Shown: piece by piece, positions 1 through 57,262 of the stretch
Numbering within the stretch: position 1 is the stretch's first letter
Layout: every line of letters starts with the position of its first letter
From: Haplodiscus bocki
Taxonomy: Eukaryota
Assembly: GCA_965655095.1 (NCBI GenBank)
Contig: OZ296654.1
Coordinates: forward strand, 46,004,001 to 46,068,000
DNA length: 64,000 nucleotides
Reading direction: 5' to 3'
Made by a program: the position numbers and the translations under genes
Notes under the pieces: model-generated
The model's database searches: none
What the model saw: only the letters and a program-made list of their open reading frames with translations
Told to the model about the DNA's origin: nothing

Positions 1-3000
1 TCAGAAACAATCAAAGTCCATCCCATCCCTCTAAATGTTGCCTAGACATGTAGAAGATAGTTTTGACAACATTAGTTTTGACAACATTTTTCAGGAAAAA
101 TCCGGAAGAAAAACTCTAAATCATTCTCGTAGACGTCATTTATAAAACTGAAACAACTTTGAGTTGTTCCGTATTTGGATTTTTTGATCAAGATGAATCC
201 TCAAGCACAAAAGGAAACAACCAAAAAGCTTCAAAACGTTCTTCGGGAACACAGTGTTCATTAATATCTGCATCCCAAAACGAGTATAGAGTTTTGCTTT
301 CGCTGGATTTTTAAAATCGCTTTTATTTCCGAAACTACCTACTTCATTTTTTGCAGCAGTGTCTCATTCAACAGCTTTTTAATTGAGGAGGTTAAAAAAT
401 CACCTCCTTTTGCTTATGTATCCAGACAGCCCAAAAGGCCAAAATAGGTGCTTTTTTACAGTTCTCACTTTTCGAACACATACTTATCAACACAACTAGC
501 TTCACTTTTCGCACCAGGGGTTTCAATCGACATCCGTCAATTTGAGAAAGATAATTTATTAGAAAAAAGAACTGATTTTGTTCATTCCATCTGATATATG
601 GCAGTGCAGACAGTTCAAAAAGTGCCACAAAAATGATTTTTTCCCGATGTTCTTTTTCTTAACTCTCATTATCTTTAGGCTTGAATGCTTCGATCAGGGT
701 CTAAATCACCAGTTTTTTACTTGAGGAGGACTATGGCGCCAAAAATGAATCAATTTTTGCAACCTATCGGAATCCTCATAATCGGAATTTTTCGAAAAGT
801 GGTGATAATATTTAATAATAATTTTTCTTTACACTCAGAGTCATCTTTCTTCAACACTATCTCCCTCAATCCTCTTGGAAAACTCTCAACCAAACACTTT
901 TTCACTGGAAGACAATTTTTCAAAAAAACTCATCATTTTTTTCTCCGCGGCTTTTCCCGGACAGTCCAAAAACGCCAAAAATGTAACTCATACTCACAAA
1001 CCTATTTTTTTTTTAATTTTATCTCCCCGAAACTACCGGCTTAAATTTATCCATCAAGGGCTCGATAAACAGCCCTATGGTTCACTATCTTAATCTTTGT
1101 ATCAGAATCTTCGTTATCCAAAAGGACCGAACTGACATGAATTTGGAAACATCCCGATATTCATCTTCATATTCCTTCATGACCATTGGCTTTGTTTTTT
1201 CCATCACTTATTAAATGACCATTTTCTATCTGCAAAATTGTCTGCAAACTGAAATGCCTTGATTTTTGCACAAGAAAACACTTTATATCATACGCGAAAA
1301 GTACTCAAAAGTGCAATTGTTATTGTTTTCTTGTTGATGTTCGAATTCATCAGGTTTTAAAGCTCTTGGCCGACAAAGTCACAATCGAAAGTTTTTTAAT
1401 TAGTCATAAATTTTCTAGAAAAATGTTCGTTGTATGGTTTGTACATCCCTTTGTCGTAAAATATTGCAGTGCGACTGCACTGCTTTTCATTATTTCCGCA
1501 AAGAAGAGCCGGTATAAAATAATTTTTATGGAAATCAAAAGTCGACTGAAGCAACTGCGTCTTACCAGATTTATTGTTTCTCAAAATTACAGTTCTTAGT
1601 TGCAAAGGATTGATAAAAAGGCAAGGGAAAAGTCTACTTATTCTTCTGCATTTATGAAAGAAATTAATCTTTTTTTGATATATTGCGCCGCAGAAAGCCA
1701 ACGCGAAAAGTTCCCCATGCAAAGTTAAAGTTTGCAAAAGTGTAGCGTCAGTTCGTCACGTTGAAACACGATTGCTTCAAATGAGCGATAAAGCCCAACG
1801 TTTGAAATTTTCCGAGAAACAATTTTCACCTACCCTAGCTCATTTGAATGCTTTGCAAAAGACCAACAAAACAATGAGACCCTAACAGTACTCATTCCCT
1901 AAAATGCTTGCACAGAATAAAAGAAGTGCCGTGAAAGTATGTAAAAAATAGAGCAGAAAATTTAAAGAGTTGGAAGTCTTTCCAATCAGTACGAAAACTA
2001 TTGAGTAGGTCAGAGTCATTTGCTTTCTCCGAAAGGAAGTTGGGCAATTTCGATGCCTATTTGCCAATAGAAAAGATTTTCAATATTCCCAGATATCGTA
2101 AAAATTGACAAACGATTTCGGTTTTTCAATTTTTATCAACAAAACTTCAGGGAAAATTTTCCGAGTGTTTTTGAAAAATGAATATTTCGTACGTACATAA
2201 GGGTCTTTTTGTTAGTGCCATAAAGGAAACTAGCACTTCGTATACCTACCTACCTGTCAACATGAAGTGCGTCAAAAGTGACAAAGTGTCTTCAAAGTAG
2301 TCAAAGTTTTATCGAACTTCAAGTGGTTCTCATACAAAACTTTTTGAGAAATTTTGCAACACTTTCAAAAATGTTTTTACTCTTTATAGACGTTTTATTG
2401 TTTTTACTATGCAAACGTCAGCTGACATGGAGGCCTAACTGTAGAGATAAAGGAAACATATTGGAGTTCGATTCAGATAGCATCTCGTCGAAAGAGCTGA
2501 AAAGAGCTACACTGTCAATATTATCCGGCGGAAGAAAAACAGAAAGAAAGATTGCATATACAAACTAGAATAACTACTATAGGTTGTGCTAAAAGCTTCG
2601 AATCTGACAATATCGAGTATCGAACTCAAACACTCGTAGTGACCGATAGCCGGTGATTGAGTGTCAAATTAATTCACCTCTTAGAATGATGTCAAATAAC
2701 ATTAAAGTTTAGAAAGTGAGAGAGTAACTCTGAAGAGAACACTTGAAAAAATAACAGCGAAGTGTCAGAGCAGCAAACGAACAAAGTCCAACATATTAAT
2801 TGACATTTTTTTCCTGTCATATTAATAGGATGACGTAAAATGATAATTTTGCACTACCGTGCCTCCAAATATGAAATACAGTGACAGCATAAACGACGTC
2901 GACAGAAAAACGACCCTGCACTTCGATTGGAGTGCAATTTTGAAAGACGCATTATTGATTGGAGCCGATTGGAAATCAGAGCATGTCAATTTACACCTGG

Positions 3001-4250
3001 ATGACACAAACCGGATGGTAGTTTTGGAGAAACATGAGAATCAAAAATTGAGGAAAATCATTTCAGTTGCACTCGAGGCTTTCCCGGTTAATCAGGCTTC
3101 CAATGCAAGAAAAATATCCCAAAATAGAGATATTGCAAAGCTTTTTCACAGTAGGAAACTGTCACTTGAGATGTGGATACCAGAAAACAAAGCCAATCTT
3201 TTTGGAGTGAATCACTGGTGATATTAGTACTTTTTGGTACGTTAATCCAATCAGGCTTCCGATGTTTACAGAACCGATGTTACTATTATCGAACTAATTT
3301 CCATAAGTAGTAAAATTGAGTGAGAATTCAAATTTATTGCAATTTCAGCCCTCAAAATTCCGATAAGAGGAACAGAATAGGAAAAGACTAATCAAATTTT
3401 GTCTACAAGCTGTAAACTGTCGATTGAGACCCTGATTTGGAGGTGTTAAAAAGAAGTTTCAGAAGAAGATGAGTCGGAGTATCCAGAAATGACATTAGCT
3501 ACCGCTTTTTGGCCCATCAGGAGTCCATTAAAAAGAAACAGACTAAAGAAACTTTTTCAACAACTTCTACAAACAAAGCGCTGTTGATTGAGAATTTGAT
3601 TGGACGAATCCGTCCAATAGTGTAGCTGGTAGAATGAGTCTAGTTGTCGGGCAAAGGGTTCCCTGAATTCAATTTCTGGTATCATACTTTCAGTATGAAG
3701 AAAACATTTTTTTTTCTGATGATGTCAAGGTTAATTGTTTGAGATTAGAAACTTTTTTTCATATTCTCAAAACTTACCCTCGACAGGCAGACTTCAAAAA
3801 GTTTTGCTTAAAGAGAAAAATTTGGATCTACACTACAATTCTCCACTTCTTGGACCCTTTCCTGATTTAAAAACTTATCTTCACAACAGTTAAAAGCCGC
3901 GAAAGGTAGCGAGTAAGAGAACTTCTGTTGTTTCTGTAAACCGCCTATAGATCGCAAAGTTTTTTGTCACCGACAAACCATTTTGAAGTGTTATGAAATA
4001 TATTTTATAAAACATTAATTTACGTTTTTTGAAACTGATTTTTTGAACTGTACATTCAAGAAAGCCTGAAAATCATCTAAAAAGTTCTATAAATACTCAA
4101 TTTGAAAATGCAAAATGCGATAGACTGAAGACGACAAAAAAATTCAATGCGTATTTGTATCAAATTGAAACTCACCTTACTACAAACTTCGCGGCCGGAT
4201 TTTTTCCTACAATTTCCCAATACACAGAATTTTACTTAACGCATCAAATT
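1..4250. repeat. Copy a of a diverged direct duplication (partner 44560-50470)
   Basis: Colinear matches by eye: GGGTCTTTTTGTTAGTGCCAT at ~2201 and ~48378; TCAAAGTTTTATCGAACTTCAAGTGGTTCTCAT at ~2301 and ~48472; CACTTTTCGCACC at ~503 and ~45077; TGAGCGATAAAGCC at ~1782 and ~46346. Confidence 0.9.
2371..3600 (+). pseudogene. Decayed intronless ORF with signal-peptide-like N-terminus, family unknown
   Basis: MFLLFIDVLLFLLCKRQLTW start, followed by ORF fragments 2278-2568 and 2859-3221; homologous decayed copy at ~48541-49780. Confidence 0.35.
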
Positions 4251-12834: not shown

Positions 12835-13640
12835 CAAATCGTTTACAATAAATAGATTTGGTGTGTAATGCATCTGCGACGAAGTTACTCGCAGACAATA
12901 CACACAGTTTTCGCAAGTTTTTTGCTCCAGCAACTGAAACTGGTGGGGCATTGGGAGGATGCGATTTCTAAATCATCCCACTCATCATTGTTCTAAGAGG
13001 TTACAGAGTGAAGGTTTAAAATTTATGCCTCTGGACAAAAAGTTTTCATACTTGTAACATTGTCTGGAAGCCGGTAAAAAACATAGCTTTACGGATATGG
13101 TGGAAGCCTTGAACACGCTCATTCAAGAGAGACACAATCACACCAAAACTTCTATTTCAGTCAAAGTGTCTTGAAGAACACGAAAAGTTGCGAATGACTT
13201 CGCGAAAGCTGGATGGGGTCTTGCATTCTTTAGTGTGGGCTTGGGTCAAGATTTTGAAGCAATGTTGTAAATGAATTTTGAGTATTCTGGAGACGATAAG
13301 GACATCACGAGCCAGTGTTTGCTCAGGATATTTTCTACAAACATTCTCCCATGATATACACAGACTTGATAGAGTAAAATTTAGTTGGCGACACAACAGC
13401 TCGATTGCTGCGCTGCATTCCCTATTTTCCCAAGCTAGAAGCTGGGGCGTAGAAACTATTGGACACTAAATGTACTATCAGACATTTGGTAACCTATGAG
13501 TTAGACCGCTGCTCAAAATTTTTCTTCATAGTGTTCATAAAGAATTGAGAGACACAAGTAGGGAAAAAATACCTTTTGTGTCTGTGGGTAATAGTCGAAT
13601 TATCCTGCTGTTCAGAAAAGCTTCCAATTTTCATTTATAA
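12835..13640 (+). pseudogene. Polinton minor capsid protein (penton), decayed
   Basis: LVCNASA...DN start; DMVEALNTLIQERHNH; homolog of 26925-27695; typical position between integrase and core gene. Confidence 0.75.
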
Positions 13641-13654
13641 CGAAAGAGACGTTA

Positions 13655-14008
13655 GTTACTACAAGACAAGTAGAGGTTGCATAATCTAGACGTATTGGTC
13701 AACAGCATGGAAAAAGATTCAGTGAAATTGCACAAGTTAATCGGAGAACAGCATTTCCATTTTTAGTTATATATGTCGGCCCAGCTACAAAGATCGTGGG
13801 TGCTGATTCGATGGAATTTGCAGCGTCGGAAATTGCAGAGGTTTTAAACGGTAGAAAAAAAATCACGAGTGCGGCAAATAGTGTGGGAAGACGAACATTG
13901 AGAAAATATATCGGTGATAGTAAGAAGCAGAGGAGAGTTTTTCTAACAAAATCTGCGAAAAAAACCAAACGGTCACGTAGAGATCTTTTTACAAATTTTT
14001 CTCGTTGA
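13655..14008 (+). pseudogene. Small basic core/cupiennin-like protein, decayed
   Basis: Degenerate QxGxGF motif, then GRTAFPFL, GADSMEFAASEIAEVLNGRKK and an Arg/Lys-rich tail. Confidence 0.65.
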
Positions 14009-14009
14009 T

Positions 14010-15388
14010 CATGTCAATAATTTTTGTATACCAGCTTTTTGTGGCAATTTCTGGAAAACTTGGAGGGAAGTTCCAAGTATTTGACGATGAATTGTCATCT
14101 CACGATCAAAACTCTATCTTACTACTTCAATTCATGAAATTTGTATTGAGTTTGAATTTCAAACTAATCGGAACTCTTACGTTAACTTGAGACAATGTTA
14201 CTTGGCGTTGAAATGGAAACTCGTCGAAGGTCGTGCTTACGAAACTTACGAAAGCAAAAAAATTAGAAACAGAAACAAAGAAGAAGCCAAAGAGGCTGGA
14301 GAGGGAAGGCATGGCGTACGGAAAATATTCAAGAGAGAAGATGGGGAATTGGAGGAGGCGGAGGTTCCAGTTCGTCTCGTTACTCGTGTAGACAACATTT
14401 GAACTCCTTTTGTTCCAATTTTCAGATCTACATCATCAATCATCAAAACCACAAATAAATTGGACTCTAGGCACACAAGTTTTACATTTCCAACAACTTC
14501 AGGAGAACCAATTTTGAAGACAAGGGAGCTTTTCACAGCGACGGTTACGACTACGAAGAATGTCTAGATGAGATTATGGAAGCAGATTTGTCTGAAACCT
14601 TAATCACAAGCAGAATGAAAATGCTCAGTAGACCCGATGGCTTCATATTGCATATAAACTGGGAGTTGATTTCTTCTCCACCTCTGAATTGCTATGTCCA
14701 AAGATAAAAATTAGGCTATATCTAATCAGAACACGATCAAACTTTTACAGGAGCAGTGACAACCAATACGTTAGTCTAGGCATTGTTGATTGTTCAATTT
14801 ACACCGGTTGCTTTGCGGTCAAGGACAATTATCACAGGGCAAGAACGAACATGCTTGCATATACTCCCGTGCAGTACAACTTCATGGACATTGTAGAAGA
14901 GATATTTATCATCCCCACCAGAGAAAACCAATTCCTTCAGGAAATTGTTTTTAAAAATGCTCCAATTCGTCGAATTGCCATTGCAATGAATACAAATTCT
15001 GCATTCACTGCATCGTATACTGAAAAACCATTCTGTTATCAGAAATTCGATCTCAGACAAAGTAGAATACTCAGAAAAGGTTAGCCAATCGTAAACTTTC
15101 ATGCTGCTAATAATTGTTGCATCTATGTTAGGACAATGCGAGCGAGGTGAGTTTCCCGCAATTCCAATTGACAATTTCAAATACCACTATTTACTACTGT
15201 TTAATTTTACTTCAATGATAGATGCCAATGAAAATTTTCATTACCCAGAGCTATTCGGAGAACCGCTGAAACTGCAGCGCCAAACTTGAATTTTCCTCTA
15301 GAACACGTTACTGAACACATTGTATTGGCAGATCGAAAGTCTTCGTTTGCAGATGACAAGTTCGATTTTGTTGGAACGAATATCTGAA
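14010..15388 (+). pseudogene. Polinton major capsid protein (hexon, double jelly-roll), decayed
   Basis: CIEFEFQTNRN, FFSTSELLCPKIKIRLYLIR, IIPTRENQF, APIRRIAIAMNTNSAF, YPELFGEPL. Confidence 0.88.
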
Positions 15389-15389
15389 A

Positions 15390-15770
15390 CGGATGATAAT
15401 CCTCTGCAAGAAATATTCAATCGTAGCCGGCAACTAAGTATCGGTACCTTGGTTCATTTCCCGCTGAATATGATCCAACTCTTGGCAATCACACTTTTGC
15501 TATTTTCCACACGCAACCCACCAGGGTGAGCGTTGGATAATGATTGCAAAGTTTCGTCATGAAATATACTTTGCAGACACTCTTGAACCTAAGAAATATC
15601 ATTTTCCCGAACAACATTACAAGCAGATGATTCCAACACAATTGCAGTCCCACCCCAGTGCTTGCAATTTCTACACGATTTATGCAGCTTTACATCTCTT
15701 CAGTTTCTGTCAGGAAGAAATTAATTGAGCTTTCTTTTCTATAAGTATTCTTTTTTATGAGTAATGAAAA
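15390..15770 (+). pseudogene. Polinton adenain-like cysteine protease, decayed
   Basis: YLGSFP, GERWIM (catalytic His site mutated), YFAD, LQSHPSACNFY (Q...C). Confidence 0.82.
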
Positions 15771-15799
15771 GTAATCCTTTAGCGCTTTCAATCTAAAGA

Positions 15800-16565
15800 A
15801 TTCAGTCTGTGTGAGGTATTTGTTCAAACTTATACTCTGTAATTTTATTCCTTTAAAACTTCAATCAATCTTTTTACAAAGCATGGAGCATAAACCTTTC
15901 AGCTCCCTCGATAAAAATCTCCGCCGCCGCAATAAACATCCGCAGGCGTATTCAATTATCTGCCACGCTTCCCAAAAAAAACTGATTCCGTCTGCGCAGG
16001 TTTGAATCCCCTTAGGACCCCTCATCTTTACCCCCTTACTTCCGAGCACACTATACTACCAGACTGCCCGAAATATTTTTCGATATACAAAACACATATC
16101 TTAATAAATTGGGGTATCTTAATACATCTTGCTAACTCGGGCATCTAGTCTCACAGTGCCGAAAAGACCGAACCTCATCGCAATACATTGGTCTGAAACC
16201 TTTTTTAGAGTGAAACCGGGAACATAGTGCAGAAAAGGACGAATCCTGTCTTGAAGTGAACTCTATCCTAATACATTAGGGTATATCTTGGGACGAACCC
16301 TAGTCTCATAGTGTCCACAAAGCCCTCATTTTGCAATGCCAATAAAGCCTTAGTCTCACAGTGCCGAAAAGTTTCAGTCTCACAGTGCCAAAAAGCCCTA
16401 TTCCAATATATTCATACCACGTAATAACATAGGAGCCGAGAAGGGTCTTCCTACCCAAAATACCGGTTTTTGCTCCCTTCCGCTCTCGGACCGCTATAAC
16501 CTATCTTAATACTTGTGGGTCTTCCAACCCCCCCCCCCGTCCGATCAGCTGACTGTCTTACTACT
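15800..16565 (-). repeat. Right TIR of Polinton copy 1 with internal minisatellite units
   Basis: Terminal AGTAGT on the minus strand; repeated TCTTAATA and AGTCTCACAGTGCC(G)AAAAG units at 16095-16420; similar to the termini at 22462 and 37889. Confidence 0.8.
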
Positions 16566-19500
16566 CATTATTCATATTTTCCCAGTGATTTAACCACCAG
16601 AATTTTAAAACTTTCAAGTCAGTTGGGTCCTTGATGAGTCCTCAGGGGAAAAAGTTTTGACATTCGTGTAAATAGTTTCTGTTTCAACAATTCTGGTTGT
16701 TTATTTGCTGTTAGAAAGAGAACTTATTTCGCCCGCTTTATCAGCTTGAACCTAATAGATTGCCATTCTTCGAAACATCAACAAAAAAAACGTTCCACAT
16801 GAAATTTGAAGTCTTTCATTTTTTTAGACCTGAGATACGTCCACAGGCAGAATTCAATCTAAATACTCAGTAACTCACGGATAATCTAACTAAGTTTCCT
16901 GAAGGCTTTCAGAGGTCAGAAGCAAAAAACAACACGCTATGCAATGGAACTTCATGTTCTGAGTTTGGATCTTATGGTGCGGTCAAGCACCACTAAGATC
17001 CGTAAAATACAAAGCAATCTCAGAGAAAGTCTTTGATTTGTATTTCAGAAAAACCCGATTTGTTTTATTTTCTTTTTTTTCTCTTTCAGAGGAATGGTGA
17101 AGTGATCAAACGTTTCCATACAAAACTATATTAGAATTACAGTTCTCAGTATTGTTTAGGTTTCAAATTCTCGCTGTTTTGTATTTCTCCCGAACTGAAA
17201 AAAATTGCCAGAGGTAGAGGAATGGTCCCAGAAGGATAGATGAGTGTGTTCACTACAAAAATCTTAGTTTCTAGTGGAAGGGTTTCGAAATTGAAATTGA
17301 AAATGATTTGATTTACAAAATTACCTAACCTAAAAGCTGCGTCAAATTTTTCTTTTCAAAACTATCAATTATTTAGATCCCGGGTAAAAACCCTGACTTG
17401 TAATAAGTTTGATACTTAATACTACTGCAAGGCCAGAATCACCTATAATCAGGACCTAATTTACGATATTGGAATGGATTAAACTCACGGTCTGGCGCTG
17501 TTCCTTTTAATGACAGACAGCTAAAGTTTAACATTGAAATGTCTCAAAAATCAAAGTCCAAGGGACGGGAAGGTCTCATTCCAATTCTATTTGAGTTTGC
17601 AGTTCAGAGGGTTGGAAGGTTTTATTCGAAATTACTCCAACCCCACAATTTTTTTCCGAAATTTTTCTGTTTTTTATGGTTTTTTTCGTGTTTTTATTAC
17701 CATTGGCCAGGTGGGAAAAAACGAGAATTTGACGTTAAAAATCTGATATTAAAACAAACTAGAAAAAAAGTGGGGTCAGAGCGAAAATGTGAAGAAACTT
17801 CGAGAGGATATGTTTCCACTCACTTGGCACTATGGTTCCAATTGGTATATTTGTTGGGTTATGTGTCTGATGGACGGTGTTGTACTGGGAAATTTTATTT
17901 ACTTTTCTTACAAAACCAAGCCTAATGTCAGAAAATTACCAAAACCGCACTTCAGAAAACTCGTATTTGTCTTCAAAAAATATAGATACGCCATTCAACT
18001 GAAAATAGAGTCTACATTCCAAAAATTGCTTCTACATTTCAACCAAGACATTATTGTATTATCAAATTAAAAAATACCGACACCCTTGAGACAGGAAATT
18101 TTCCAGATAATCTACAAAGTGTTTCATAAAACCTTTTTTGAGAGTAAAAGAAGTTTTATTGAATCTAGTTGTTAGATAAAAAGCAGATAAAAAAACAAAC
18201 AAGGTAACAAAAAAAGTCGAAAAATACCAGGGTTTTCACGCCTTCCGAACTTAAAGACACGCCTGGAAAGCACACTTTCCGCCACCAGGTACCAACTTTC
18301 CTTGTCTGAAAGTCACAAATCGTCATTTTCCATACTTCAAGAGACAATGGTGGCAATTTAACTTCAGAACGTGGTAGAAACCTGCGGACTCTCACTACAT
18401 AGTGTAGGACAACAGATCGCCGAAGTACTTGGCAACGTAATATTCTTCCACACCCTGACTTTTTGAAATTTTGATTCCCCAATTTTGTTATGACGTCCGG
18501 AATAGAATATTCTTCCTGGCATTCAAATCACGTTTTTAATGTCCCCTATCAAAAGTGGTAAATTGGTAGATACCGGAACCAAAAAAGCGCACTTGATATT
18601 TTGCCACTAAATCCGTTTTTAATTCAACTATTTTGACGTCCCCTCCAGATAGAAAATATTAAGTTCGGCACAAAACTCGACCAGAAAAATGGATTTGATA
18701 TCCATTAATTCAGCACCAATTGACCTAGCGCTCCTTTACCTTTAAAGCAGCCAACCATCTTTTCAACTTCAAACTAGTTTCCCACGATCCTATATTCAAA
18801 ATGGTGCTAAAGTTCTTACATCACTTCGTCATTTTGTCCAACTTGAACAGCTTTAGTGTTTGAAGCGGCACTTGAATGTCTTCAGTTGAAAATGCGCAGT
18901 TTTTTCGTCAAAATTTTTTAGTTTTCGTGAGAATTTAATTTAAGGATAAAGAAGTTGTCTTCCAAAGTTTTTGCAGCGTATGAAGCGTCATAAACGCGTG
19001 CTTTGTACGTAGGAACCCAATAGCGAAGCAACTGCTGCGGAAAAAGGAACTACAAAAAGAAGAAAAGGACGCACGAAGGCAAAGGTTCATTGTGACAAAA
19101 AGCAAAGTCCATAATAAATTTCTCAAATGCGCTATTACTCGTTTCCCAGGTAGGCGTAGTTGTTGAGACATTCAATTTTTAAACTTCTAACTCATTTTCT
19201 CATGAATTTCGCAAAATGGACCGATTTAATGGGGGTTAAAATGCTTTCACGTCAAAATTTTCATACAGATAAATTTTTCACATTTTCTCTCAATTCCAGC
19301 TTCTAACACTCTGCACGTTGATTGTTCCATGGATTGTGTAAATTATCAGGCGCTTAAACGAATATTATATGCGTAATTCTACGTTTACAGTGTCTCAGAT
19401 AACTTAGTAGTGTGCAAAAATGGGACCAAGGAAAACTAACCACGGCCCAAAAATGGAACTTAGCATGCCATCTCTGTTAACTCTGGGTCCATCTCTGTCT

Positions 19501-20080
19501 TACTAAGAGAGGGCAAACCGTAATCATAACCAACAAGTTTGAAAATCTATTTTGATTTTCTATTTGTATTTGTAGTTTAAGTATCTATAGCGTCAAAGAA
19601 TGATACTTTTGTAGAAAATGGAGAAGCTCCACCATTTTCATGAATCTCTCTGGTTAGCAGTTGTCGATTAACACGGTAAAGCAACCAATTTCGAAGCCCG
19701 AACTTTTTGTGGCCATTAAGTTACCACATTCAGAGTTACAACAGTTGATGAGGTGGTGCATTTCAGATTTAAGTCCTGATTATAAAATCTATCTTAGGTT
19801 TTAAACACTCATGTCAAACCTAAGTTGATAATCCCTCTGGTAGACGTCAGTTACTTTCTGTACGTCCTGTAAATTGACTTATATCCGTTGTAATGGAATT
19901 CTTGAGTGAAACGACAAATTAATTCAGAACCGTTGTCTTCTCTGAGCTTTATTAGAGCAAGTTTTTCCTTAGAGAGCACGCCTGAACTTCGGAAAGTAAA
20001 ATAGCATAAGATTTTCACAAAAACAGGAGAAGAGTAGTATGATAATGAACCAACCAGCTGGGGTGGTGGAAGCCCCTACG

Positions 20081-20490
20081 TGTAATAAGTTAGGCTATAG
20101 GCGTCTGAGATCCGAATTGAGGTCAAAGCCGGTGTTCAGCGAGCGGAGGTCCCTTTTCGGTTGCTATAATGAGACGTAGGGTCAAGGTACTAAAATAGGG
20201 TTAAGAAATGAGTTCGGTGGAGTCGAGGGATTCCAATTATTAAAAAAAGGGATGGGTAGACGAGAGTATTCGGCATTAATTAGGATATGAAGTTTAGTAG
20301 TATTAGATGGAGCAAGACAGCCACGGGGATAGGTTATGCAACCCGAGAACCGAGAAGCGTCTTCGGTCACTGTGCGATGTGGGTCTAATGGCTGGCGAGG
20401 GTGAGAGTCTTTCTCGGCATAGTAGAAAAAGATAAAAACTGTTATTGTACTTTTTCGGGGCTGCGCATGGCCGAGCGGATAAATATTACA
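20081..20490 (+). mobile_element. LTR (3' LTR with upstream purine-rich tract) of an LTR retrotransposon
   Basis: TGTAATA...TATTACA 7-bp inverted ends, 410 bp, GC-richer than flanks, preceded by GGGGTGGTGGAAG. Confidence 0.7.
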
Positions 20491-20699
20491 GTGCGGAATT
20501 AGATTTTACGCCAGCGGTTAGTTACTAAGACTGCCGTTAATTAGTGCGCCTGCGACTATTTTCGCGCCTGGGACAGTTTTAAAGACTGAAGTTATCTTTG
20601 TAACTTATTGCTATGTGAAAAGATTGTTTGAAAGTTAAAAAAGTGAGTTAGATTATAGAAATATTACCAAAAACATTGTAAGTAAAAAATTTGAATATT

Positions 20700-22461
20700 T
20701 GCTGGGTGAGTAACCGTTTGCTTCAAAAATATTCTTTGGATAGAAAAACTTTACGACAAGCCTTTTTGGTCCTCTCATAGGTATGAACACTATGATTTTT
20801 TTTCGGAATCCGCGACCTATTGATGTTACACTTTCTTTTTCTTTGAAAACTTCCAAAGATTTTTGCACGGGACCATCTCTATTGTCTTCAATTTATTGTT
20901 TGTGTAAATCTTTGCTGCCAAACTTTTATTTGTTGAAGCAGTAGTCGAAACAACATTAGCTTTTACTACACAAACACAACATTTCTGTGGAACGAACTCC
21001 TCCTTGGACAGTCCCTACTCCCTCTTCTGTTGTTTTTTTTTGTTTTTTGCGAAAAATGTACGCCCGAAGACGTTGCGGCAACCGTCTGCAAAGAAACTCT
21101 CGTCACAGTCTTTGCTTCGCAAAAGTTCCCACTCTTGCTTTCTTGGCTACATTTTTATAAACCTTCCTTTGCGAGCGCTAAAAAGAAAGAAACTGTATCC
21201 AATTCCTCCATCTTTTCGTAATTTACTGTTTAGCGAAATTTTGAAGAAAAGTTGCAACAGAGCTGCAACAGTCTCAATTTAGCGTTCTGATAGATAAAAG
21301 ACCTATTATGATAGGCTCTTTATGTCCAATGTCGGGCTTCACCATTTCGTTTAAATAGAGTTGTTGATTGTATTGAGCTGGTCTCTCCGACAGCTTAGTG
21401 TTTATTGCTGCATCTAACCGAATGACGACTACGACCATTATTTGATATCCATAGGAACCGCTGGCAAGTATTCCTGTTGTTTCTGCAAGAACACTGGAAA
21501 TGGGACTTTCATCGTGCGACAGCAACATAATGCACAAAATTGTTGAACCATTTTACTAGAACGCACTCAACGAATGGGTAAGTTTTTGTGCATACGGACC
21601 CAGTTCCAAGTAAAACAAAAAAACAGTGTAATGATTGTTGCATTTTTACCTCAAAACTGGAAATTAACGTTCGTCGTTGTTGGTGGTTGGAACAGTAAAC
21701 TTTCCCTATAAGCAAACACTTGCATTGAAGGATTATTATCATGTCTGCATACGTTAGTATATTTAAAAACAAGAGGAAAAATTGCAGTTTTTTTCTCCGC
21801 TACTCTGGGACATGATTATCACAACGTGAATAACCAAACAACAAACCCGACTTTAGCTTTCAAATTGACTGTTCTTCTCTCAGCGGTCTCTTTAAACGAA
21901 AAGATTCTCTCAAATGCTGCTTTAGTGACGCATCTGTTTTGTATAACGACCATCACTCACGTTTCCACATTTCAGCAATATCGTTTATTTTCTTTTTGAT
22001 GTACTCTCATCGGATTTGGTCTATTGTTCTCCTTTTATTTCCCCGTTTAATGTCTTCTTCTGTTAGCGGAGGTCGTGCTTCTTGGCGAGAACAGTAAGGT
22101 TGAAACCAAGCTTTCGCTTCAAGCACGGTGCTGCAATGGGCGAAAAATCTATCCGCATTGAAACAATCATTTTTTCTGACATGCTATGGTTTAGAAGCCC
22201 TCTATTTAACAGTCGGATCTGATTCAAAGAAAATTGGTCACGAAAAGGTTTTGAAAGCTTCTTGTCTTGTTTAGTTTGTGTTTGAATCTTTGTAAATCTT
22301 CCTCAATTTCATATCTAGTGTAAAAACCTGTCGGCCTGAGTTGCCACGTAGAAAATGGGAAAAGACGGCTGGCATCAATCCCAACAACTGATTCACAAAT
22401 TTTTGTGGACTTGCCAACGAGTGTCTCCTCAAATATAACTATACGTGTAAACACAATTGAA
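20700..22461 (-). pseudogene. Protein-primed DNA polymerase B, 3' half (subfamily B, target of nested insertion)
   Basis: Begins SIVFTR; VGIDASRLFP (motif A), ILASGSYGYQIM (motif B), EELDTVSF (motif C), C-terminal TSIGRGFR. Confidence 0.88.
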
Positions 22462-23540
22462 AGTAGTAGAAGAGTGAGCACACCAAGTGGGGGAGTTTGC
22501 CTTATAGACCCTATGTTTTATTATGGGCTATAGCAAGCCGAGTGGAACCGAGAGCCGAGAAGGGTCTTCATGCCCAGCTGGGACCTCTCGGATGTTTTTG
22601 GGAGACGTAATCTCAATTCTGATTGGCTGACGAAGCCTATATGTTATTCGGGCTTGATTCCGATTGGCAGCCTACAACTTTGCGGTTTGGGCACAAGTCA
22701 AGTGTGTTCGGCAATTTATTAAGACAGGGAATGGTATACCACATTGTATTAGTATAGGCTTTGGATTTTGAAAAGTATAAAGACAGAGAGTGGGCCCAAT
22801 GACCCATTTTCGGTGCTATGAGACCTTTTCGAGATTTTTTTTTGATTTTTGGGCAGCAGCCGAGCTTCGGGCGGATATTCATTACAACTCGGTCTGATTG
22901 TGACGGCTGCGGATACTGTTATGACTTCATGCTATGTGAAAAGATTGCTGCAATGTATTAGTATACGGTATCCTTCGGTAATGTATTAAGATAGGTTATC
23001 GTTTGGTATTGTATTAGGATAGGGTCCAATTGGCTAATGCATTAAGTTAGAGTTTAGTCCTGTAAGGTAAAAAGGTAAGGTATAGTTCGGCAATGTTTTA
23101 TGCTCAGTAGTATAAGGGTCCAAATGGGTTTTCGGAGTGAAGCTCAACATTATGTCAATCTTATCACCTGTCAATCCTGGATTCAACATATGGTTTCTCG
23201 CAAGGTAGACTCGAGCTTTCGAAAACGTTTTTCAGTACTAAAATCTTCTTCTAACTAGGACGCCTGAGGGATAAAAGTTTAACTAAGGGATCTCAAACAA
23301 ACGTGAAGATTGACTCCAGCAATGCAAAAGTAATAAGGGCAAAAAAATGTAGCCATGTTACCCATTACAATATACCATATATTTGATTACCACCAAAAAA
23401 GACCTGTCATAAAAGGAGATACCGACCATAAAAGCAGCTGTCAATCAGTTTTTCACGATTGCGCATACTGCGTTGACCTAATGCCCTAATGCTATCTAAA
23501 AAGTTTGATATAGAGTTTAAAATTTTTAATTAGACAATAC
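22462..23540 (+). repeat. Polinton terminal repeat (~1 kb), partner of 37889-38600
   Basis: AGTAGTAGAAGAGTGAGCA vs AGTAGCAGAAGGGTGGGCA; shared TTTGGGCACAAGTC, TGATTGGCTG and AAAAAATGTAGC blocks. Confidence 0.85.
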
Positions 23541-23589
23541 AATAAATAACAAAAGCATGTTATAACATGCACAATTACATTGAAAAGCT

Positions 23590-23983
23590 CAAATTATTAT
23601 ATGTAACTACTAATAAAGGAATATATATTGACATCGTGAGCTCAGGTAATTTCTCCTTGTCGCATCTTGAGGAGAGCATAAGTTGCTTATGTCGTGTAGA
23701 AACCGCAGACGCTTGGATTGGACTGTAATGGTTCTGGCATCATCTGCTTGTATTGCCGCTTGAGGAAACTGCTGCGTCCGAGAAACTCTGCAACATACAA
23801 TTTTAAATGAGAGTTTGCATACATTATCCAATGCTCATCCTGCAAAATACGGAGTTACGTTTTCATAATGGCAAAAGTCTCATTGAGGAGAGTTGGAACA
23901 GAATCTGCGGAGAACGAAACAAAGTTTCGATACTTGAGTAGAAGGATACGACTGATTACTTGCTCCAGAGCAACGTGATCCAT
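23590..23983 (-). pseudogene. Polinton adenain-like cysteine protease, decayed
   Basis: MDHVALEQVISRI...DEHWIM...LQSNPSVCGFY. Confidence 0.85.
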
Positions 23984-23985
23984 TT

Positions 23986-25105
23986 TAGATATTCTTCACA
24001 ACGACGCCAAACTTGAAACTGCAACCGAAGGCTTTCGATTGCCCAATATACTGATTCTGGAAACGTGTTCTAGAGGAAAAGTAAAGTTTAGCTCGAGTCT
24101 CAGAGGTTCTCCAACTAGTTCTGTGTAATGACAGTTTTCAGTAGCTTCTTGCATTGAAGTCAAATCAAAAACAATTACTAAGTGATCTTTGATTATGTCA
24201 ATGGGAATTGAGGGTATATCATCTTGAAAAATTATCGTTTTCATTGTCGTAACGCATAAAGGACAAAACTCATCAGTATCAAAATCTTCAATTGGCTGGC
24301 CATCTCTGATTATTAAATTGTCTGAGATCGAACTGCTGTTATTAGAATGGATTTTCAGTGTCAGATCCAGTGAAAGCAGAGTTTGTTTTCATGGCAATGG
24401 CAATTAGACGAAGTGGAGCATTTCAAAAGAAGTTATTTTGATTGAATTGGTTTTGTTTTGTAGGAATGATAAAAGTCTTTACCAGATTTTCCAAATCCTT
24501 GACTTTCACAGGGGTATAGGCGAGCATATCGTTGTTTCTCTTGTGATTATCGTCCTTGAGAGCAGTACGACGAGTGTAAAGCCAACTGTCAAACAAACAA
24601 CATTTCCCAGACTAACGTTGGGGTTGTCGCCAATCATGTTAAATTACGGTCCGTCTCTGATTAGTCGTAGTCTATTTTTCATATTTAGATAAAACAATTC
24701 AAAAGTGAAGAAATAGTCAACACCCAATTTACCATACAACATGAAGCCTTCCGGTCCACTAAGCATTTTCATTTTTGTTGTGAAAAATGAGTCAGACAAG
24801 GGTTCTTCGTAACTTCATCAGGAAATTCCTAAAATTCGTATCTCTGGCAGTGGAAAACGTCCTTGTTTTCGGAGATGGCTCCTTTGAAGTTGTTGGAAAC
24901 GTAAGATTAGTGCGAATACAATCCTTATAGATTGTTTATTTGCTGATTGTTGATGTATACTTCAACATTGGAAAAATTTTTTGCAAAATGTTGTTTACTT
25001 GAGTAACGAGAGGAACTGGAACCTCTTGCACTTCCTCCTCCGTTTGCATAACCGTTTTAGCTTCATTTTTGTGCCCCATTTTTATTTCATTTATTTGTAA
25101 GTTTA
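23986..25105 (-). pseudogene. Major capsid protein, 5'-truncated third copy
   Basis: GFMLYGKLGVDYF; FQDDIPSIPID...VFDLTSMQEATENCHYTELVGEPLRLELNFTFPLEHV (ORF 23996-24244). Confidence 0.88.
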
Positions 25106-25189
25106 GCAATCTGAAGGGAGTGATCCAAGCTACCGATATTTCAGTATAAGGTAGGATTTTTTATTTGCTGGAGAGTAGCTTTTTCGAAT

Positions 25190-26555
25190 TCGGATATTCT
25201 TTCCAACGAGCCAAACTTGTCAGTTGCAACCGAAGACATTCGATCGCCCAATACAATGATTTTAGAAACGTGTCCTAGAGAAAAATTCAAGTTTAGCGCT
25301 GCAGTCTCACCGGTTCTCCGAATAGTTCTAGGTAATAGAAAAATTCAGTAGCATCTTTCTTGAAAGTAGAATCAAACAGTACTAATAAGTGGTCTTTGAA
25401 ATTGCCAATTGGAATTGCGGGATTGTCACCTTGCTCGCATTCCTATAACAAAGGAGCAACAATTAATAGCAGCATAAAAGTTTACCATTGGCTGACCTTC
25501 TCTGAGTATTCTACTTTGTCTGAGATCGAATTTCTGATAACAGAATGGTTTTTCAGTATACGATGCAGTGAATGCAGAATTTGTATTCATTGCAATGGCA
25601 ATTCGACGAAATGGAGCATCTTTAGAAACACTTTCCTGAAGGAATTGGTTTTCTCTGGAGGGGATGATAATTGTCTTTTCCACGACCTCCAAGAAGTTGT
25701 AGTCCACGGGAGTATATGCAAACATGTCCTTTCTTGCCCGGTGATAAGTATCTTTGAGAGCAAAATACCTGGTGTAAAGTGAACAATCAACACTTCCTAG
25801 ACTAACGTCGTGGTTATCGCTGGTCATGTAGAAATTTGATCAAGTTCTGATTAGACATAGCCTAACTTTCATATTTGGACATAACAATTCAGAGGTGGAG
25901 AAGAACTCAACCCCCAGTATATATGCAATATAAAGCCATCGAGTCTACTGAGCATTTTCATTCTGCTTGTGATTAAGGGTTCAGACAAATCTGCTTCCAT
26001 AATCTCATCTAGAAATTCTTCATAGTCGTAACCATTGCTGTGCAAAGCTCCCTTGTCTTCAAAGTTGGTTTTCTTAAAGTTGTTGGAAATGCAGGACTTG
26101 TGTGCATGGAGTCCAATTTGTTTGTGGTTTCGATGATTGTTGATGTACTTCTGAAAATTGGAACAAAAGGAGTGCAAATGTTGTTTACACGAGTAACGAG
26201 AGGAACTGCAGCCTCAGCTTCCTCCATCACCTCATTTTCCGTACGCCATGCTTTGATTCTCCAGCATCTTCGGCTTCTTTTTTTGTGCTTGTTTCTAACT
26301 TCCTTGTTTTTGTAAGTTTCGCAACCACAACTTTTGAAGAGTTTCCGTTTCAAAGCTAAGTGACGTAGTCTCAATTTTACGTAAAAGTTCCGATCTGTTT
26401 GAAATTCAAACACAATACGATTTTCATGAAGTCAAGTAGTAGGATAAACTTCTCGTTCGTGGGAAGCCAATGCATCGTCAAACAGTTGGACTTTCGCTCC
26501 AAAGTTTCAAGAAACTGCCACACAATGTTGGTATAGAAAATTTTTCTCGACATGA
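25190..26555 (-). pseudogene. Major capsid protein, second copy, decayed
   Basis: ORFs 26009-26413, 25869-26177 and 25426-25827 match hexon copy 1 (FEFQTDRN; RRIAIAMNTNSAF). Confidence 0.88.
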
Positions 26556-26908
26556 CCAACCAGAAATGCCTGTAAAAATATCTCTACGTGACCGGCTGGC
26601 TTCCTCGCTAGATTTGTTTGAAACACTTTCCTTTGCTTACTACCACAAACAACCTATTTTCTCAATGTTTGTCCTCCCGCACTCTTTGCCGCACTCTTGA
26701 AATTTTTTCTAACACTTACAACCTCTGCATCTTCTGGCACAGCAAATTCCAACAAAAGAGCAACCACGCGTTTTGCAGTTAGGAAGGAGTTTTTACGTAA
26801 AAATTGAGCGCTTCACTTATTAACTTGCGCAAGTGCACCGAATCCCCGTCTACTTTGTCATCCAATACCTCTATAGAGTGGAATGTCTACTTGTCTTGAG
26901 GCAACCAA
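26555..26908 (-). pseudogene. Small basic core/cupiennin-like protein, decayed
   Basis: VASRQVDIPLYRGIG*QSRRGFGALAQVN; homolog of 13655-14008. Confidence 0.7.
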
Positions 26909-26924
26909 TTTCAGCGCCTTTTAG

Positions 26925-27695
26925 GTTAGAAATGAATTTTAGAGGCTTTTCTGAACATCTAAACAAGACGAGTGAAACCGACAGATACTAAAGGTATTTT
27001 TTCACCGCTCGTGTCTCTCAAGTCAAGAAAGAGTATTTGAGCAGAGGTTTGAAATGTAGGCTACTGACTGTCTGATAGTTCATGTACTGCCCACTGGTTA
27101 GAAAGCCGCCAGTTCTTAGCTTTGAAAAAATGGGAAAGCAACGCAGCAAGGGAGCCTTTGTGTCGCCAAAAAACTTGTGTTCAATCAGGTTCGTGTTTTT
27201 CACGAGAGAGTGTATGCGGACAAGTGTGTGCGCAAATTCCGGTTTGTCTATTCTTTATCCTCTCAACATCATTCCGAAATCCGTGCTAACATTACTCCCG
27301 AAAAACTTTAACAAATCTTTACTAAATATTCCAAGACCAGATCCTTCATTTGCAAGGTAAATCTCAAATTTTGCGTTCCCTGAGACATTTCAACCCTTAG
27401 ACACATTTCGCTGTGATTGCGTCTCTCATGAAAGAGACTGTTCATGGCTTCAACAAAAACCGTAATGGAAGGGTTTATACCGGGTTCCAGATAGTAGAAT
27501 TCTGACGCGTTTGAGAGGTTGTTATCAAAAAACTTGAACTTGTTCGCTGTGATAATTTGGTACATTGACGGGTAGGAAATGTCCGAAGTCACAAGTTCCC
27601 ATTGGTCATCCAAATTCGGTTGATCCGGTAAAACTTCTGTAGAGAAGCTGAGTGTTTTGTCTGGAAACAGTTGTACAGATGCATTACAAACCAAC
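26925..27695 (-). pseudogene. Minor capsid protein (penton), decayed
   Basis: ELVCNASVQLFPDKTLS...WELVTSDISYP; GDTKAPLLRCFP...YMNYQT (ORFs 27308-27772, 27018-27203). Confidence 0.8.
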
Positions 27696-28520
27696 TCTGG
27701 AAGATGTTGCAACAATTTCGAAAACTTTCTGTGCAAACCGTGGCTCATAAGATTTCCTGAAGGGTAAGTCATACTTCGAGATAGGAACTGTCTCTAAGTT
27801 TAAACTTGGGTTTTTCAAATTTTCGTAGTGGCTTGTTGTACAGAAAGGACAAAGAAAACGGAATTCTTGACTTTTTGGTAACAATTCATTCGAGCATTTT
27901 TTTCTGGATTTCAGGGTAGTGACGCATTGAGACAACTTGTGAATGTATTTGTATCGATAATCTTCCCTGTAACGGTAAAGTTTTTTTTTCAGCGATATTT
28001 TTGCACGTTCAGCAAATGCAGCCTTAGTCACTCACACGCAAGGTAGAATAAATTAGTATTGCTTCAGCTTTTTATTTTTAAAAAAACTCTCCAGTGTTTT
28101 CTGTTCCTTTATCGATACAAATTTTCTTGGATGATTCTTCTTTGTGATCATAGTTAAAAAATCGCGAACAGTTTCTTTGGAATCTTTTGTTTTCATTCCT
28201 TTTTCATCTACACTTCTATCAAACAGGTCTTGACAAAATAACAGACACTTTACACCGTTAACCCCTTTGGCTGGCTTATCAACGTATGCCAAGTCCGTCC
28301 ACCAAATTTCATTTTTGAGTCTGGCGAACAGTTTCAACCACTTTAATTTACGTGTGGCAACAAAAATTTTCGTGTAGGCAGTTTTTTGAACATGAAAATT
28401 GTCTCACCTTTGATACTGGCAGATTGCCAGCTTTCACCAAATTGTTTACAAACCCAAAAGCAGCACCACACTGAGTGTACAGTCTTTGCAGCTTCTGACG
28501 TTCATATTTTGAAATGAACC
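27696..28520 (-). pseudogene. Retroviral-like DDE integrase, decayed, C-terminus deleted
   Basis: NEIWWTDLAYVD, CQDLFDR, TKAAFAER (ORFs 28053-28337, 27684-28031). Confidence 0.9.
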
Positions 28521-29200
28521 CAGCTTCTTCTCTCCTTGGTTATGACATTTTGATTCAGAACCAGAGTCTGAGACATACCAGCAGTGTCACTTAGAGTGAA
28601 GTAACGGTCTGGAACTGCAGCGTTTTAACGACGCAGTTGCTGAGCAAAGTCTGACAAAAAGTTCCAGTTTTCACACTATGCAATAAATAGTGTTGGAATT
28701 TGACAGCTTGATACGAGAACAAGACAAAGTATTGTCAACTACGGAGCCTGCACTGGTAAACAATTTTTTTCCTTTTCTAGTCGAGTAAATTTGGTACCTG
28801 GTTTTTTATTCAACTTGAATTTTTTGGAGCTCTTGTTTTTGAACTGCCTGGATATTCAAAAACTTGTATTTCTACACAGAAGCCGGGACGCGAACACACT
28901 GCTCCGTATCAAGACAATTGGTTAATGACGGAAACAAAAACAAATTTACGAGTTCAATACCTTTTTCGGCTGCCAGAACGTCCCTTCTGTGCTCACAAGT
29001 GAATATTTTTATAAAAATCAATCGGACCTCGTTTTGAAATTTTGTCACTTGATGTCTTTTTATGCTTTGCAAATTTCCTTTGAGTGGATTTTTTTTCATT
29101 TTCAGAGGAACCTGCTAAACTCTATTGGGCAAGACTGAAGGAAAAAACTTTCGCATTTGAGAGGAAATGATTGGATTACTTGGAAATAGAAAGATTTTGT
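28520..29200 (-). pseudogene. Two small conserved Polinton ORFs between ATPase and integrase, decayed
   Basis: FLQSCP..F.RFL...LKGNLQSIKRHQVTKF matches 11560-11790 in copy 1; the second ORF (EQCVRVPASV...) matches 11795-12160. Confidence 0.6.
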
Positions 29201-29826
29201 GTGTTCATTGTCCAAAGTCTCCAGATGTTTCAACCCGTCCGGGATTAAAAATTCGAGGGAGTAGATCCAGGGTTTCTGCAGTAACGGAGTCAATCAAAAA
29301 AGGACCGTGGGGAATAGAAATTGCGTCTCAATACCAGCCAAGAACGTCTGATCGGAATCCCAATTGTGCACTAAGCCTAATGATGTGCGCATAACAGGGA
29401 GGTTTCAAGAGAACACTGAACGTGTTTTGTTGCTCAACGTCTCAACTAAAATTGCTTTGATGAAACAAATTGCCACTATTGTATTAAGTATTCAATACAC
29501 GATGTCTTCCAGCAAAACCAGTATCAAAAAACGCTTTTCAGATGTAAGTTGCCTCACATGAGTCGCCAAATGTTAACAAATACTTTGCATTGTTGTTTTT
29601 AAACGAATCTATAAAACCAAACTTTAAAACTTGAACAAACTCCAGATTATCAATCTCTTTTGGCATAATTTTGTGAAGTGGCTGAGATTGTTGTTGGAAA
29701 AAAACTTGTTATATTTTGGTTCAAAGGTTCCAATCTGGTGCTACTTGCAAATAATCTGTGAGTTTCCCGCCTTGGACGGACCATCAAAATAAATATACGC
29801 TTTATTGGAGTAATTAACTTGTTCAT
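29020..29826 (-). pseudogene. Packaging ATPase, decayed
   Basis: ATG at 29826; GPSKAGNS degenerate Walker A; HQSNFS*DVEQQNT; colinear with 10840-11667. Confidence 0.82.
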
Positions 29827-30199
29827 AACCTTGGTGACGGTGAACTGTATCCTGCTGCACTACCAAAATTCCCAAACAAACAGTTGTTTCATAACGAGTT
29901 TTTTGAAGTTGAACTCACCAAAAAGCAAACAGCGATAATCAACAAAATGACAAAAGGTCGGAACGAAAAATCTGTCAGATATCTGCAAGAGGATTGTCCC
30001 AAACAAGACCAAATTTTTTTTATTGTTCGTTTTCCACAAGGACAATTTTGCCTTGATCAGTATTATCTTCTTGGTCAGTCATCAATTGCTGGCTTGAACG
30101 CTCAGTTACTCAAAAACTAATCTCGGAGGAAGGTTGAATCGTTTCGAAAGATTTAATTGCGTAGAAACTGACACAACATTCCATAGTGCAACTCTTACA

Positions 30200-30665
30200 A
30201 TTACTGCTGCTTTGTCCAGTTAGCAAGCAATTTTGCTTTGCGCTCTGCACTGTGAAGTGTTTTCTTGCGTTTGACAGCGTAACTCGAGCACAAACACAAT
30301 TTTCCAACTGCTCTAGGATCAGCAAATTCTGTTTTTTGAGGCAACTATGATGCTCCAAGTTTTCCACTGCTTTATCTTTTGAATTGTAGAAAAATTTGCA
30401 TTTTGCACTCTTCTGTCTCTTTGGCAAAATATTCACCCCTTACAAAACTGAGAAGAATGTTTCGAAGCTCACTGTAATCCAAACAATCACTGTCAGTTTC
30501 AATTCCGTGCATCTTTCCTGTTCATCAAATTGCTTGTTTCTGGGGTTTGTACCTCTTTGGAGCACAAGATGAGTATCCCAGAACCTTCCGATCAGTAAAA
30601 ATCCCAACTCGTTAATGAATTTTATATATGCAAGCTCAGTATCTAGTACAATGCAAAACATACTG
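30200..30665 (-). pseudogene. Putative DEDD exonuclease-like accessory gene, decayed
   Basis: MFCIVLDTELAYIKFINELG...HSAERKAK; homolog of 9970-10495. Confidence 0.45.
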
Positions 30666-32140: not shown

Positions 32141-32304
32141 TTGTCGATATAGTACTCTGGATTCTGGAAGAAGTGTTTTTTTTAAAATGAAAGTTAAAGA
32201 CTGATTTTGGGGCTGCGATTTGTTGCTTATTCGCAATACTCCAGAGCAATGATCATCCAGCGAGAACTTGAAAAAAACCAACCATCAGATTTTGTATGAA
32301 ATAT

Positions 32305-52546: not shown

Positions 52547-52599
52547 AGTCGTGAAATTATAAAATTATGTTGAATTAGAAACAAAATAGGAAATAGAAA

Positions 52600-57192: not shown

Positions 57193-57262
57193 TTGCGTCT
57201 CTGTTTATATAGTACTAGTTTATTTGAAATAAAAAACACCTTATTCAAAAATATATTTAAAA

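Follow-up and report, generated by a model that had tools for sequence, protein, structure and literature searches.

Probable gene conversion between two decayed Polinton capsid genes in Haplodiscus bocki

Non-allelic gene conversion is a known process, and our literature search returned no paper describing it for Polintons; the term "gene conversion" is absent from the main text of PMC8097293. According to the accessible parts of PMC3924818, conversion mainly needs more than 80% identity, and its rate drops with distance and divergence. Neighboring Alu elements within ~10 kb undergo conversion (Aleshin and Zhi 2010, cited in the accessible part of PMC8230782). The capsid pseudogenes described here, A and B, resemble those Alus in being dead repeats that have non-diagnostic mutations in common with a neighbor ~10 kb away. 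They differ in the length of the tract (1.0–1.4 kb), its shared frameshifts, its origin in a virus-derived gene and the 68% identity of the copies elsewhere, and they are a single case without a distance series. Conversion in transposable elements and LTRs, as described in the available portion of PMC6598467, likewise leaves a patchwork in which some segments match another copy exactly, with derived alleles moved in clusters; those cases rest on population polymorphism, whereas A and B represent one haplotype, with no regulatory role suggested.

Decayed Polintons in the window

The window, meaning the whole stretch of DNA analyzed, comprises 64 kb of H. bocki sequence. Capsid copies A and B are inverted relative to each other, and a third copy, C, serves as outgroup (Table 1). 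The elements resemble degraded Polintons/Mavericks, as characterized in the accessible parts of PMC8097293 and PMC4028283, in their (AGT)2/(ACT)2 end motifs, putative integrase, putative capsid gene with a smaller upstream gene and heavy decay; unlike those, they are truncated and occur as nested fragments. End motifs lie at 16560, 20033 and 22462, each inside mutually similar terminal sequence, and the call rests on this context because the hexamer is present 36 times in the window. The integrase deletions are independent, as the first-pass annotation stated: A lacks ~280 nt, and B lacks ~110 nt elsewhere in the region.

A Pfam search of 148 of 172 open frames of at least 68 codons, in the first 52 kb, returned weak matches only, of which the integrase core was the useful one. 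The same search on read-through frames of the polymerase-like and protease-like stretches gave no relevant match, and the packaging ATPase, cysteine protease and minor capsid had zero Pfam matches; these three names are tentative, assigned by position. Polymerase-like motifs, recognized by eye in 38500–40300 (-) and without a Pfam match, may mark a protein-primed DNA polymerase B, and sequence related to this region is found at 20776–22177. The gene upstream of the capsid has conserved unnamed relatives in the database. The capsid itself has no Pfam match and no PDB sequence match. Its intact relative P0033 has Atlas neighbors at 0.98 (PF21738, DJR-like, in 24% of members) and 0.96 (PF16903, in 24%), at an Atlas recognition of 2188, below the guide value of 2300, and its predicted structure is of low confidence (pLDDT 31). 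Gene order makes it a candidate double jelly-roll major capsid protein.

Table 1. Features of the capsid pseudogenes, their elements and the control repeat.
Feature	Position	Strand	Evidence and remarks
Control plateau, copy 1, non-capsid repeat	1969..3432		1229/1434 identical to copy 2 vs 626/889 outside
Control plateau, copy 2	48151..49608		Direct orientation, 46 kb from copy 1
Upstream gene in A	12886..13650	+	Putative minor capsid/penton, named by position; no library match; 4 private frameshifts
Upstream gene in B	26916..27697	-	2 private frameshifts; one stop at same codon as A
Major capsid (hexon) pseudogene A	14011..15384	+	tblastn with intact relatives, frameshift-aware alignment; 5 frameshifting breaks, 3 private stops
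Major capsid pseudogene B	25195..26551	-	tblastn, frameshift-aware alignment; 4 frameshifting breaks, all common to A; 3 private stops
Capsid pseudogene C, 5'-truncated	23990..25105	-	Begins near reference residue 76–84; independent breaks (tblastn, alignments)
B/C junction	25100..25115	-	B–A homology stops, truncated C starts
Homogenized tract, A arm	13971..15362	+	Change-point fit; 1177/1376 columns identical to B vs 789/1159 outside
Homogenized tract, B arm	25214..26593	-	25214–26239 aligns gap-free with 14337–15362
110-bp identical core, A	14966..15075	+	Assigned as youngest exchange
110-bp identical core, B	25501..25610	-	Reverse complement of 14966–15075
Second high-identity stratum	14376..14702 (partner ~25874–26200)	+	Identity 0.914; scan with core removed, permutation P = 0.017
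Shared break 1	A 14398..14401; B ~26178	+ (A)	Three-way and frameshift-aware alignments
Shared break 2	A 14653..14656; B ~25921	+ (A)	Three-way and frameshift-aware alignments
Shared break 3	A 15142..15154; B ~25428–25433	+ (A)	Three-way and frameshift-aware alignments
Shared break 4	A 15275..15282; B ~25297	+ (A)	Three-way and frameshift-aware alignments
Putative integrase core fragment, element B	28056..28403	-	Pfam rve E = 0.0093, 16.6 bits, below curated cut-off 32.6; mostly absent from A
(ACT)2 end motif closing element A	16560..16565	+	Motif as in accessible part of PMC8097293
(AGT)2 end motif closing B/C composite	22462..22467	-	Motif as in accessible part of PMC8097293

Shared lesions and the extent of the tract

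The first-pass annotation reported four indels common to A and B; all are visible in the three-way alignment and are derived relative to an intact database relative. Frameshift-aware alignment places them at reference residues 116, 202, ~366–372 and 414 in A, and 116, 202, ~368–370 and 413 in B, with breaks 3 and 4 cancelling each other such that the frame is shifted for ~45 codons only. C is free of these four indels, as first described, yet it has a one-base loss of its own ~4 codons from break 1 (24976). Each stop in the capsid gene is private to one copy (3 in A, 3 in B and 7 in C). Across 322 conserved columns, 44 identical residue changes are common to A and B, versus 2 for A and C, and 3 for B and C. 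The chance that no exchange occurred, and that greater conservation or slower mutation of the capsid gene relative to its neighbors explains the pattern, is close to nil. Intact relatives do show good conservation along the gene, and C too is most alike at the core, but the feature common to A and B is damage rather than a conserved state, and the four shared derived indels contradict this explanation. Moreover, A–C and B–C identity is only ~0.70 over the same bases, and A–B differences are flat across codon positions (30/27/31 in 259 codons; A–C 71/59/92).

Identity along the elements is uneven, at 0.855 between A and B within the tract versus 0.681 outside, and the change-point fit gives a 2dLL of 111 against a permutation maximum of 20 (30 permutations). 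Successive layers of the tract have identities of 0.80, 0.91, 0.80, 1.00 and 0.82; the capsid sequence flanking the near-identical segments, first estimated by eye at roughly 80%, varies from 0.80 to 0.91 rather than being uniformly 80%. The core matches at 110 of 110 bases, as originally noted, and under even divergence no run of that length arose in 100,000 permutations (longest 103). When the test is restricted to sites polymorphic among A, B and C it gives only P = 0.024, because C is likewise most alike here (0.849 over 14955–15060, not significant). The second near-identical tract of the first-pass annotation also exists, but its partner is 25916–26013, one base from where it had been placed; 20 of 98 bases match in the earlier register, and the corrected one contains exact runs of 34 and 36. 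Within the tract, the gap-free arms span 1026 nt at 87% identity with 133 substitutions and 0 indels, while the fitted tract has 5 indels per 199 substitutions. This scarcity of indels stands out against six other alignments (Fisher P = 0.0002–0.034), but is given little weight because the interval was picked for being gap-free.

The upstream gene behaves differently: between A and B, 0 of 6 frameshifts are shared, and 1–2 of 75 conserved columns have shared changes. Upstream private stops number 17 and 18 in the two elements (with a rough choice of frame), indicating that both are equally old and ruling out B as the younger element. B's milder upstream decay (P = 0.06) hints that A may have been the donor. 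Copying of the whole element from a dead master is excluded because the flanks are 68% identical and their breaks unshared. We also rejected the idea that B arose by one-ended copying from A and was rejoined to C, since the last 130 bases of B are no nearer to A (0.70) than to C.

Origin of the shared sequence

Because the damage is shared and the differences are flat across codon positions, we conclude that sequence moved between A and B after their death. The shared state is the decayed state, confined to ~1.0–1.4 kb, later divergence is codon-blind, and exchange took place in at least two episodes. The first-pass proposal of repeated exchange after pseudogenization, mainly within the capsid gene, is therefore upheld by the shared derived breaks, the codon-flat differences, the contrast of tract with flanks and the layered identity. 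The process was probably neutral non-allelic gene conversion, acting directly between A and B as neighboring decayed Polintons and seeded in their most alike gene. Two Polinton copies would have inserted in tail-to-tail orientation and each decayed on its own until ~68% identity was left, before homology-directed repair copied sequence between the capsid genes without crossover. The divergences of 13% and 32% would place the main exchange after ~60% of the time since death. Exchange may have started in the capsid gene because the two elements were most alike there and the arms are 10 kb apart. Later, shorter exchanges may have hit the tract again because identity raises the rate, with the second stratum being a likely exchange of intermediate age and the newest exchange presumably giving the 110-bp core. 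The exchange itself probably has no function.

Two observations sit less easily with gene conversion: the first exchange must have taken place near 78–80% identity unless homogenization was continuous, where PMC3924818 gives more than 80% as the main requirement, and both edges of the fitted tract come close to the ends of the capsid gene (within 40 and 22 bases), a closer fit than a blind process requires. An unusually high frequency, in this genome, of kilobase-scale conversion between repeats of 80% identity or less is doubtful, though likelier than a functional fold-back. The near coincidence of tract and gene, together with higher identity in the 3' two-thirds, could alternatively reflect a transcript of one dead capsid gene that was reverse-transcribed and recombined into the other. 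Such RNA-templated exchange is scarcely probable: identity climbs gradually at the left edge (0.69, 0.75, 0.80, 0.88), and A–B homology itself ends ~100 bases from the right edge, which accounts for the match without RNA, and a control tract of the same size has no known gene boundary.

This control is a directly oriented repeat pair whose plateau (0.857 versus 0.704 outside) has the same length and identity as the capsid tract. The repeat does not match the capsid relatives, and database searches gave no family name; "Gypsy-like" was a first by-eye label and is a candidate only. The control plateau is even (longest identical run 40, P = 0.23) and has 18 indels per 205 substitutions versus 0 per 133 in the gap-free capsid arms. 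Shared stops number 7 in both the capsid and control plateaus and 0–2 in the flanks, against null means of ~12 and 1–4; because the count rises with identity, it only weakly indicates that the control had already died at the time of copying. The control is an imperfect one, compared by plateau size and identity, with unpolarized lesions. Overall, a kilobase tract is found in two of the five long repeat pairs examined; in the D/E pair, a 40-column segment scored 17 versus a permutation maximum of 14.8 (a coarser test) and was not counted as a tract.

Database proteins P0248 (85% and 65% identical to control copies 1 and 2) and P0250 (78% and 74%) are at least as close to the control plateau as its copies are to each other, suggesting that the control exchange may be dispersed rather than local. 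By analogy with these near copies outside the window, A and B could each have taken the tract from a third broken capsid lineage elsewhere, a non-autonomous subfamily or multi-copy conversion network, their closeness being incidental. The capsid family is large (1196 database matches), and our search of host DNA covered 64 kb. We nevertheless consider a dispersed dead donor unlikely. A dispersed subfamily with the same lesions, the possibility that the first-pass annotation had set against its own proposal, was not found: the flanks share no frameshift, and 0 of 240 database capsids, many covering part of the gene only and the set being biased to open frames, have more than 5 of the 44 changes, with 116 having none. 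Furthermore, the closest match to the B open frame is 57–70% identical, among the 120 of 246 matches listed.

There is a very slim chance that the likeness of the copies comes from cross-talk during assembly or polishing, 110 bp being near short-read length. The arms differ by substitutions without indels, with a transition share like that of other pairs, and they have private stops and distinct flanks; cross-talk from collapsed copies would moreover favor the intact state, which is abundant, while the state that A and B share is a rare, derived one. An artifact could account for no more than the core.

Fold-back potential and implications

The first-pass annotation offered neutral conversion and a capsid-specific fold-back as alternatives, and the equal plateau of an unrelated direct pair makes conversion the better of the two. 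Under the fold-back alternative, a transcript over the 10-kb spacer would pair the arms and yield capsid-specific siRNAs or piRNAs against active Polintons, with selection keeping the arms alike. The inverted geometry suits this, as do the gap-free arms with 132 perfectly paired 21-mers, the closeness of the tract edges to the capsid gene ends and the repetition of exchange; intact capsid relatives are plentiful in the database. The locus resembles hairpin and EVE-derived small-RNA loci in being an inverted repeat of viral origin whose arms could pair in a read-through transcript; it differs in its 10-kb spacer, 13% mismatch, absence of G-U bias and drift from the intact family. G-U mismatches number 26 for a plus transcript versus 35 for a minus one (P = 0.31), and transversions make up 58 of 119 mismatches. 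At 5 of its 36 codons the core is unlike intact capsids, so homogenization copied decay, not the target. The direct control pair cannot fold back, yet its plateau is the same and it contains 73 perfect 21-mers; the spacer contains two element ends and other fragments, and no Rfam match lies within the window. The sequence thus lends no support to an EVE-immunity hairpin, and we regard a functional fold-back as highly unlikely. If true, it would mean that an endogenous DNA-virus fossil had turned into an RNA-based defense, with conversion keeping the arms in register. Small RNAs mapping to the arms would make this a case of immunity to Polintons derived from a virus fossil, but none of the present results point in that direction.

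As the probable product of gene conversion, A and B provide a clean, polarized example of exchange between dead copies of an endogenous DNA virus. Ages and trees of endogenous Polintons that are derived from capsids can mislead, since these capsids are 13% apart and their elements 32% apart. The recurrence of a 1.4-kb tract of the same identity in two of five long repeat pairs suggests that such exchange may occur often in this genome and could be measured against distance and orientation.

Shared damage in two capsid pseudogenes

Comparison with an intact database relative, P0020, places four breaks at the same positions in the inverted capsid pseudogenes A and B, as the first-pass annotation had claimed, and one further break near the start of A. 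The third copy, C, lacks these four, as also claimed, and is broken elsewhere; it is ~70% identical to both A and B. Every stop codon in the three copies is private. From the best 120 of 1196 relatives we picked 44 near-full-length sequences and used the 322 columns with conservation of 90% or more in which both A and B stay in frame. A departs from the conserved state at 99 of these columns and B at 104; 44 departures are identical between A and B, against 2 for A and C and 3 for B and C (C covers 270 of the 322). By codon position, A–B differences number 30/27/31 (259 codons) versus 71/59/92 for A–C, indicating that A and B diverged without selection and that C additionally bears older silent divergence. 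On these sequence comparisons, the state shared by A and B is damage.

The gene upstream, compared with the best 120 of its 1024 relatives, has four frameshifts in A and two in B, none in common; 1–2 of 75 conserved columns are common to A and B, one of them a stop at the same codon. Private stops across the upstream genes number 17 and 18 in the two elements. These unshared breaks and stops indicate that the elements died independently, at similar times, and that what the capsid copies have in common arose separately and more recently. Exchange between the capsid copies after pseudogenisation, as first proposed, is well supported by the four common breaks and 44 identical departures, set against upstream frameshifts of which none is common.

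Identity and surroundings of the gene

Read-through of C matched 1196 relatives; searched against the window, the best 120 of them match nowhere outside the regions of A, B and C. A weak integrase match, element end motifs that agree with those quoted in PMC8097293, and the gene order described for Polintons in PMC4028283 make this likely to be the Polinton major capsid gene. For an intact relative, P0033, the Atlas protein-family neighbours have a DJR-like domain in 24% of their members, and a viral capsid family ranks 30th among them; recognition fell short of the guide value. Neither Pfam, nor a PDB sequence search, nor structure prediction of P0033 gave any result on identity.

The element initially treated as one unit, 22462-34670, proved composite, B being joined to C. 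Polymerase-like sequence cut by terminal sequence resembling that at 22462 suggests nested insertions, with element B extending beyond 34670.

Coordinates of capsid copies, repeats and neighbouring features
Feature	Position	Partner	Remark
Capsid copy A (+)	14011-15384
Capsid copy B (-)	25195-26551
Capsid copy C (-)	23990-25105		5'-truncated
A/B element homology	~8664 to ~15460		61-69% upstream of capsid gene (self-comparison)
Same-codon upstream stop	13297 (A)	27257 (B)	chance, or trace of older, longer exchange
Arms	14337-15362	25214-26239	87% identity, gap-free, 9851 bases apart
Identical core	14966-15075	25501-25610	reverse complement, 110/110
Second near-identical tract		25916-26013	exact runs of 34 and 36
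Fitted tract	13971-15362		1177/1376 identical; 789/1159 outside
Control repeat	199-4237	44752-50458	direct, 46 kb apart; copy 1 lacks ~1.6 kb adjoining plateau
Control plateau	1969-3432	48151-49608	1229/1434 columns identical; 626/889 outside
P0247 stretch	1848-2297		library protein is same stretch with TGA as tryptophan; probably gene-caller artefact on decayed DNA
B/C junction	25100-25115		B stops ~90 bases past its capsid gene, fused to middle of C, of another lineage
Polymerase-like (+), by eye	35500-37888	37883-40326	interrupted by the terminal sequence (partner)
Element end, then polymerase-like	20033-22357	38700-40326	between arms; ~61%
28-bp tandem repeats	22952-23100	38217-38333	inside element ends; mutually related
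Short direct repeats	16146-16371
Low GC	52001-64000		falls from ~36% to ~26%
Open frames (-)	54516-59603		several, 135-250 codons
Inverted repeat	52072-52177	52441-52547	81%

Shape of the homogenised tract

The 110-bp identity first reported is exact, and the next longest exact repeat between separate loci in a self-comparison of the window is 40 bases. The second near-identical tract is also present, its partner coordinates needing a one-base shift. A change-point fit delimits the tract at 13971-15362. Identity from 13000 to 15460, across the tract and its flanks, steps through 0.69, 0.75, 0.80, 0.91, 0.80, 0.96, 0.82 and 0.70. The earlier suggestion of repeated exchange is supported: a run of 110 arose in 0 of 100,000 permutations, and with the core removed 14376-14702 remains distinct (0.914, P = 0.017). 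Among the 324 sites polymorphic in A, B and C, the longest run is 18 (P = 0.024). We infer either one long exchange, dating back ~40% of the time elapsed since death and followed by one or two short ones, or continuous homogenisation over a shrinking stretch.

A repeat pair unrelated to the capsid elements serves as control. Its plateau matches the capsid tract in length and identity, so the tract pattern needs neither capsid nor inversion. As a control the pair has limits: identity is spread evenly over its plateau (longest run 40, P = 0.23), which contains 18 indels. High-identity kilobase tracts occur in two of the five pairs compared, being absent from A/C, B/C and a polymerase-like pair (20776 / 38700). 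Each plateau ends ~100-130 bases before a rearrangement junction, and the intervals in between, 15331-15460 (capsid) and 1861-1968 (control), are at background identity (rough chance ~0.06).

Probable neighbour conversion and its alternatives

The tract could have been taken from a broken capsid lineage elsewhere in the genome. Dispersed exchange is possible for the control, since two database proteins are as close to its plateau as its copies are to each other. Among 240 database capsids (best 120 of 1196 plus best 120 of 246), however, none has over 5 of the 44 shared changes and 116 have none; these sets are biased to open frames, include many partial sequences and come from unassigned genomes, so this absence only lowers the probability of a dispersed donor, which we consider unlikely.

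The first-pass annotation also offered a functional fold-back, the inverted arms pairing as a transcript hairpin. Inverted geometry and a gap-free kilobase of arms (both partly ascertained) favour it, as do tract edges near the capsid gene ends, but homology itself ends ~100 bases from the right edge. Against it, the 119 mismatches in 14375-15330 include 58 transversions and show no G-U bias (26 for a plus transcript, 35 for a minus, P = 0.31), and 5 of the core's 36 codons differ from those of intact relatives, indicating that exchange spread decay, not target sequence. Judged from sequence, such a hairpin is highly improbable.

Instead, non-allelic gene conversion between neighbours, neutral in its effect, probably explains the exchange. 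PMC6598467 reviews conversion among transposon copies, the rate drops as distance grows and where identity is under 80% (PMC3924818), and a 10-kb range for neighbouring Alus is cited in PMC8230782. In a search that covered few subscription papers, none of the papers listed for Polintons, gene conversion and capsid together describes such an exchange in its title or abstract opening; the closest paper (10.64898/2026.10.13.758929) concerns module swapping among active viruses. The process would be a known one, and the element family in which it occurs new for it.
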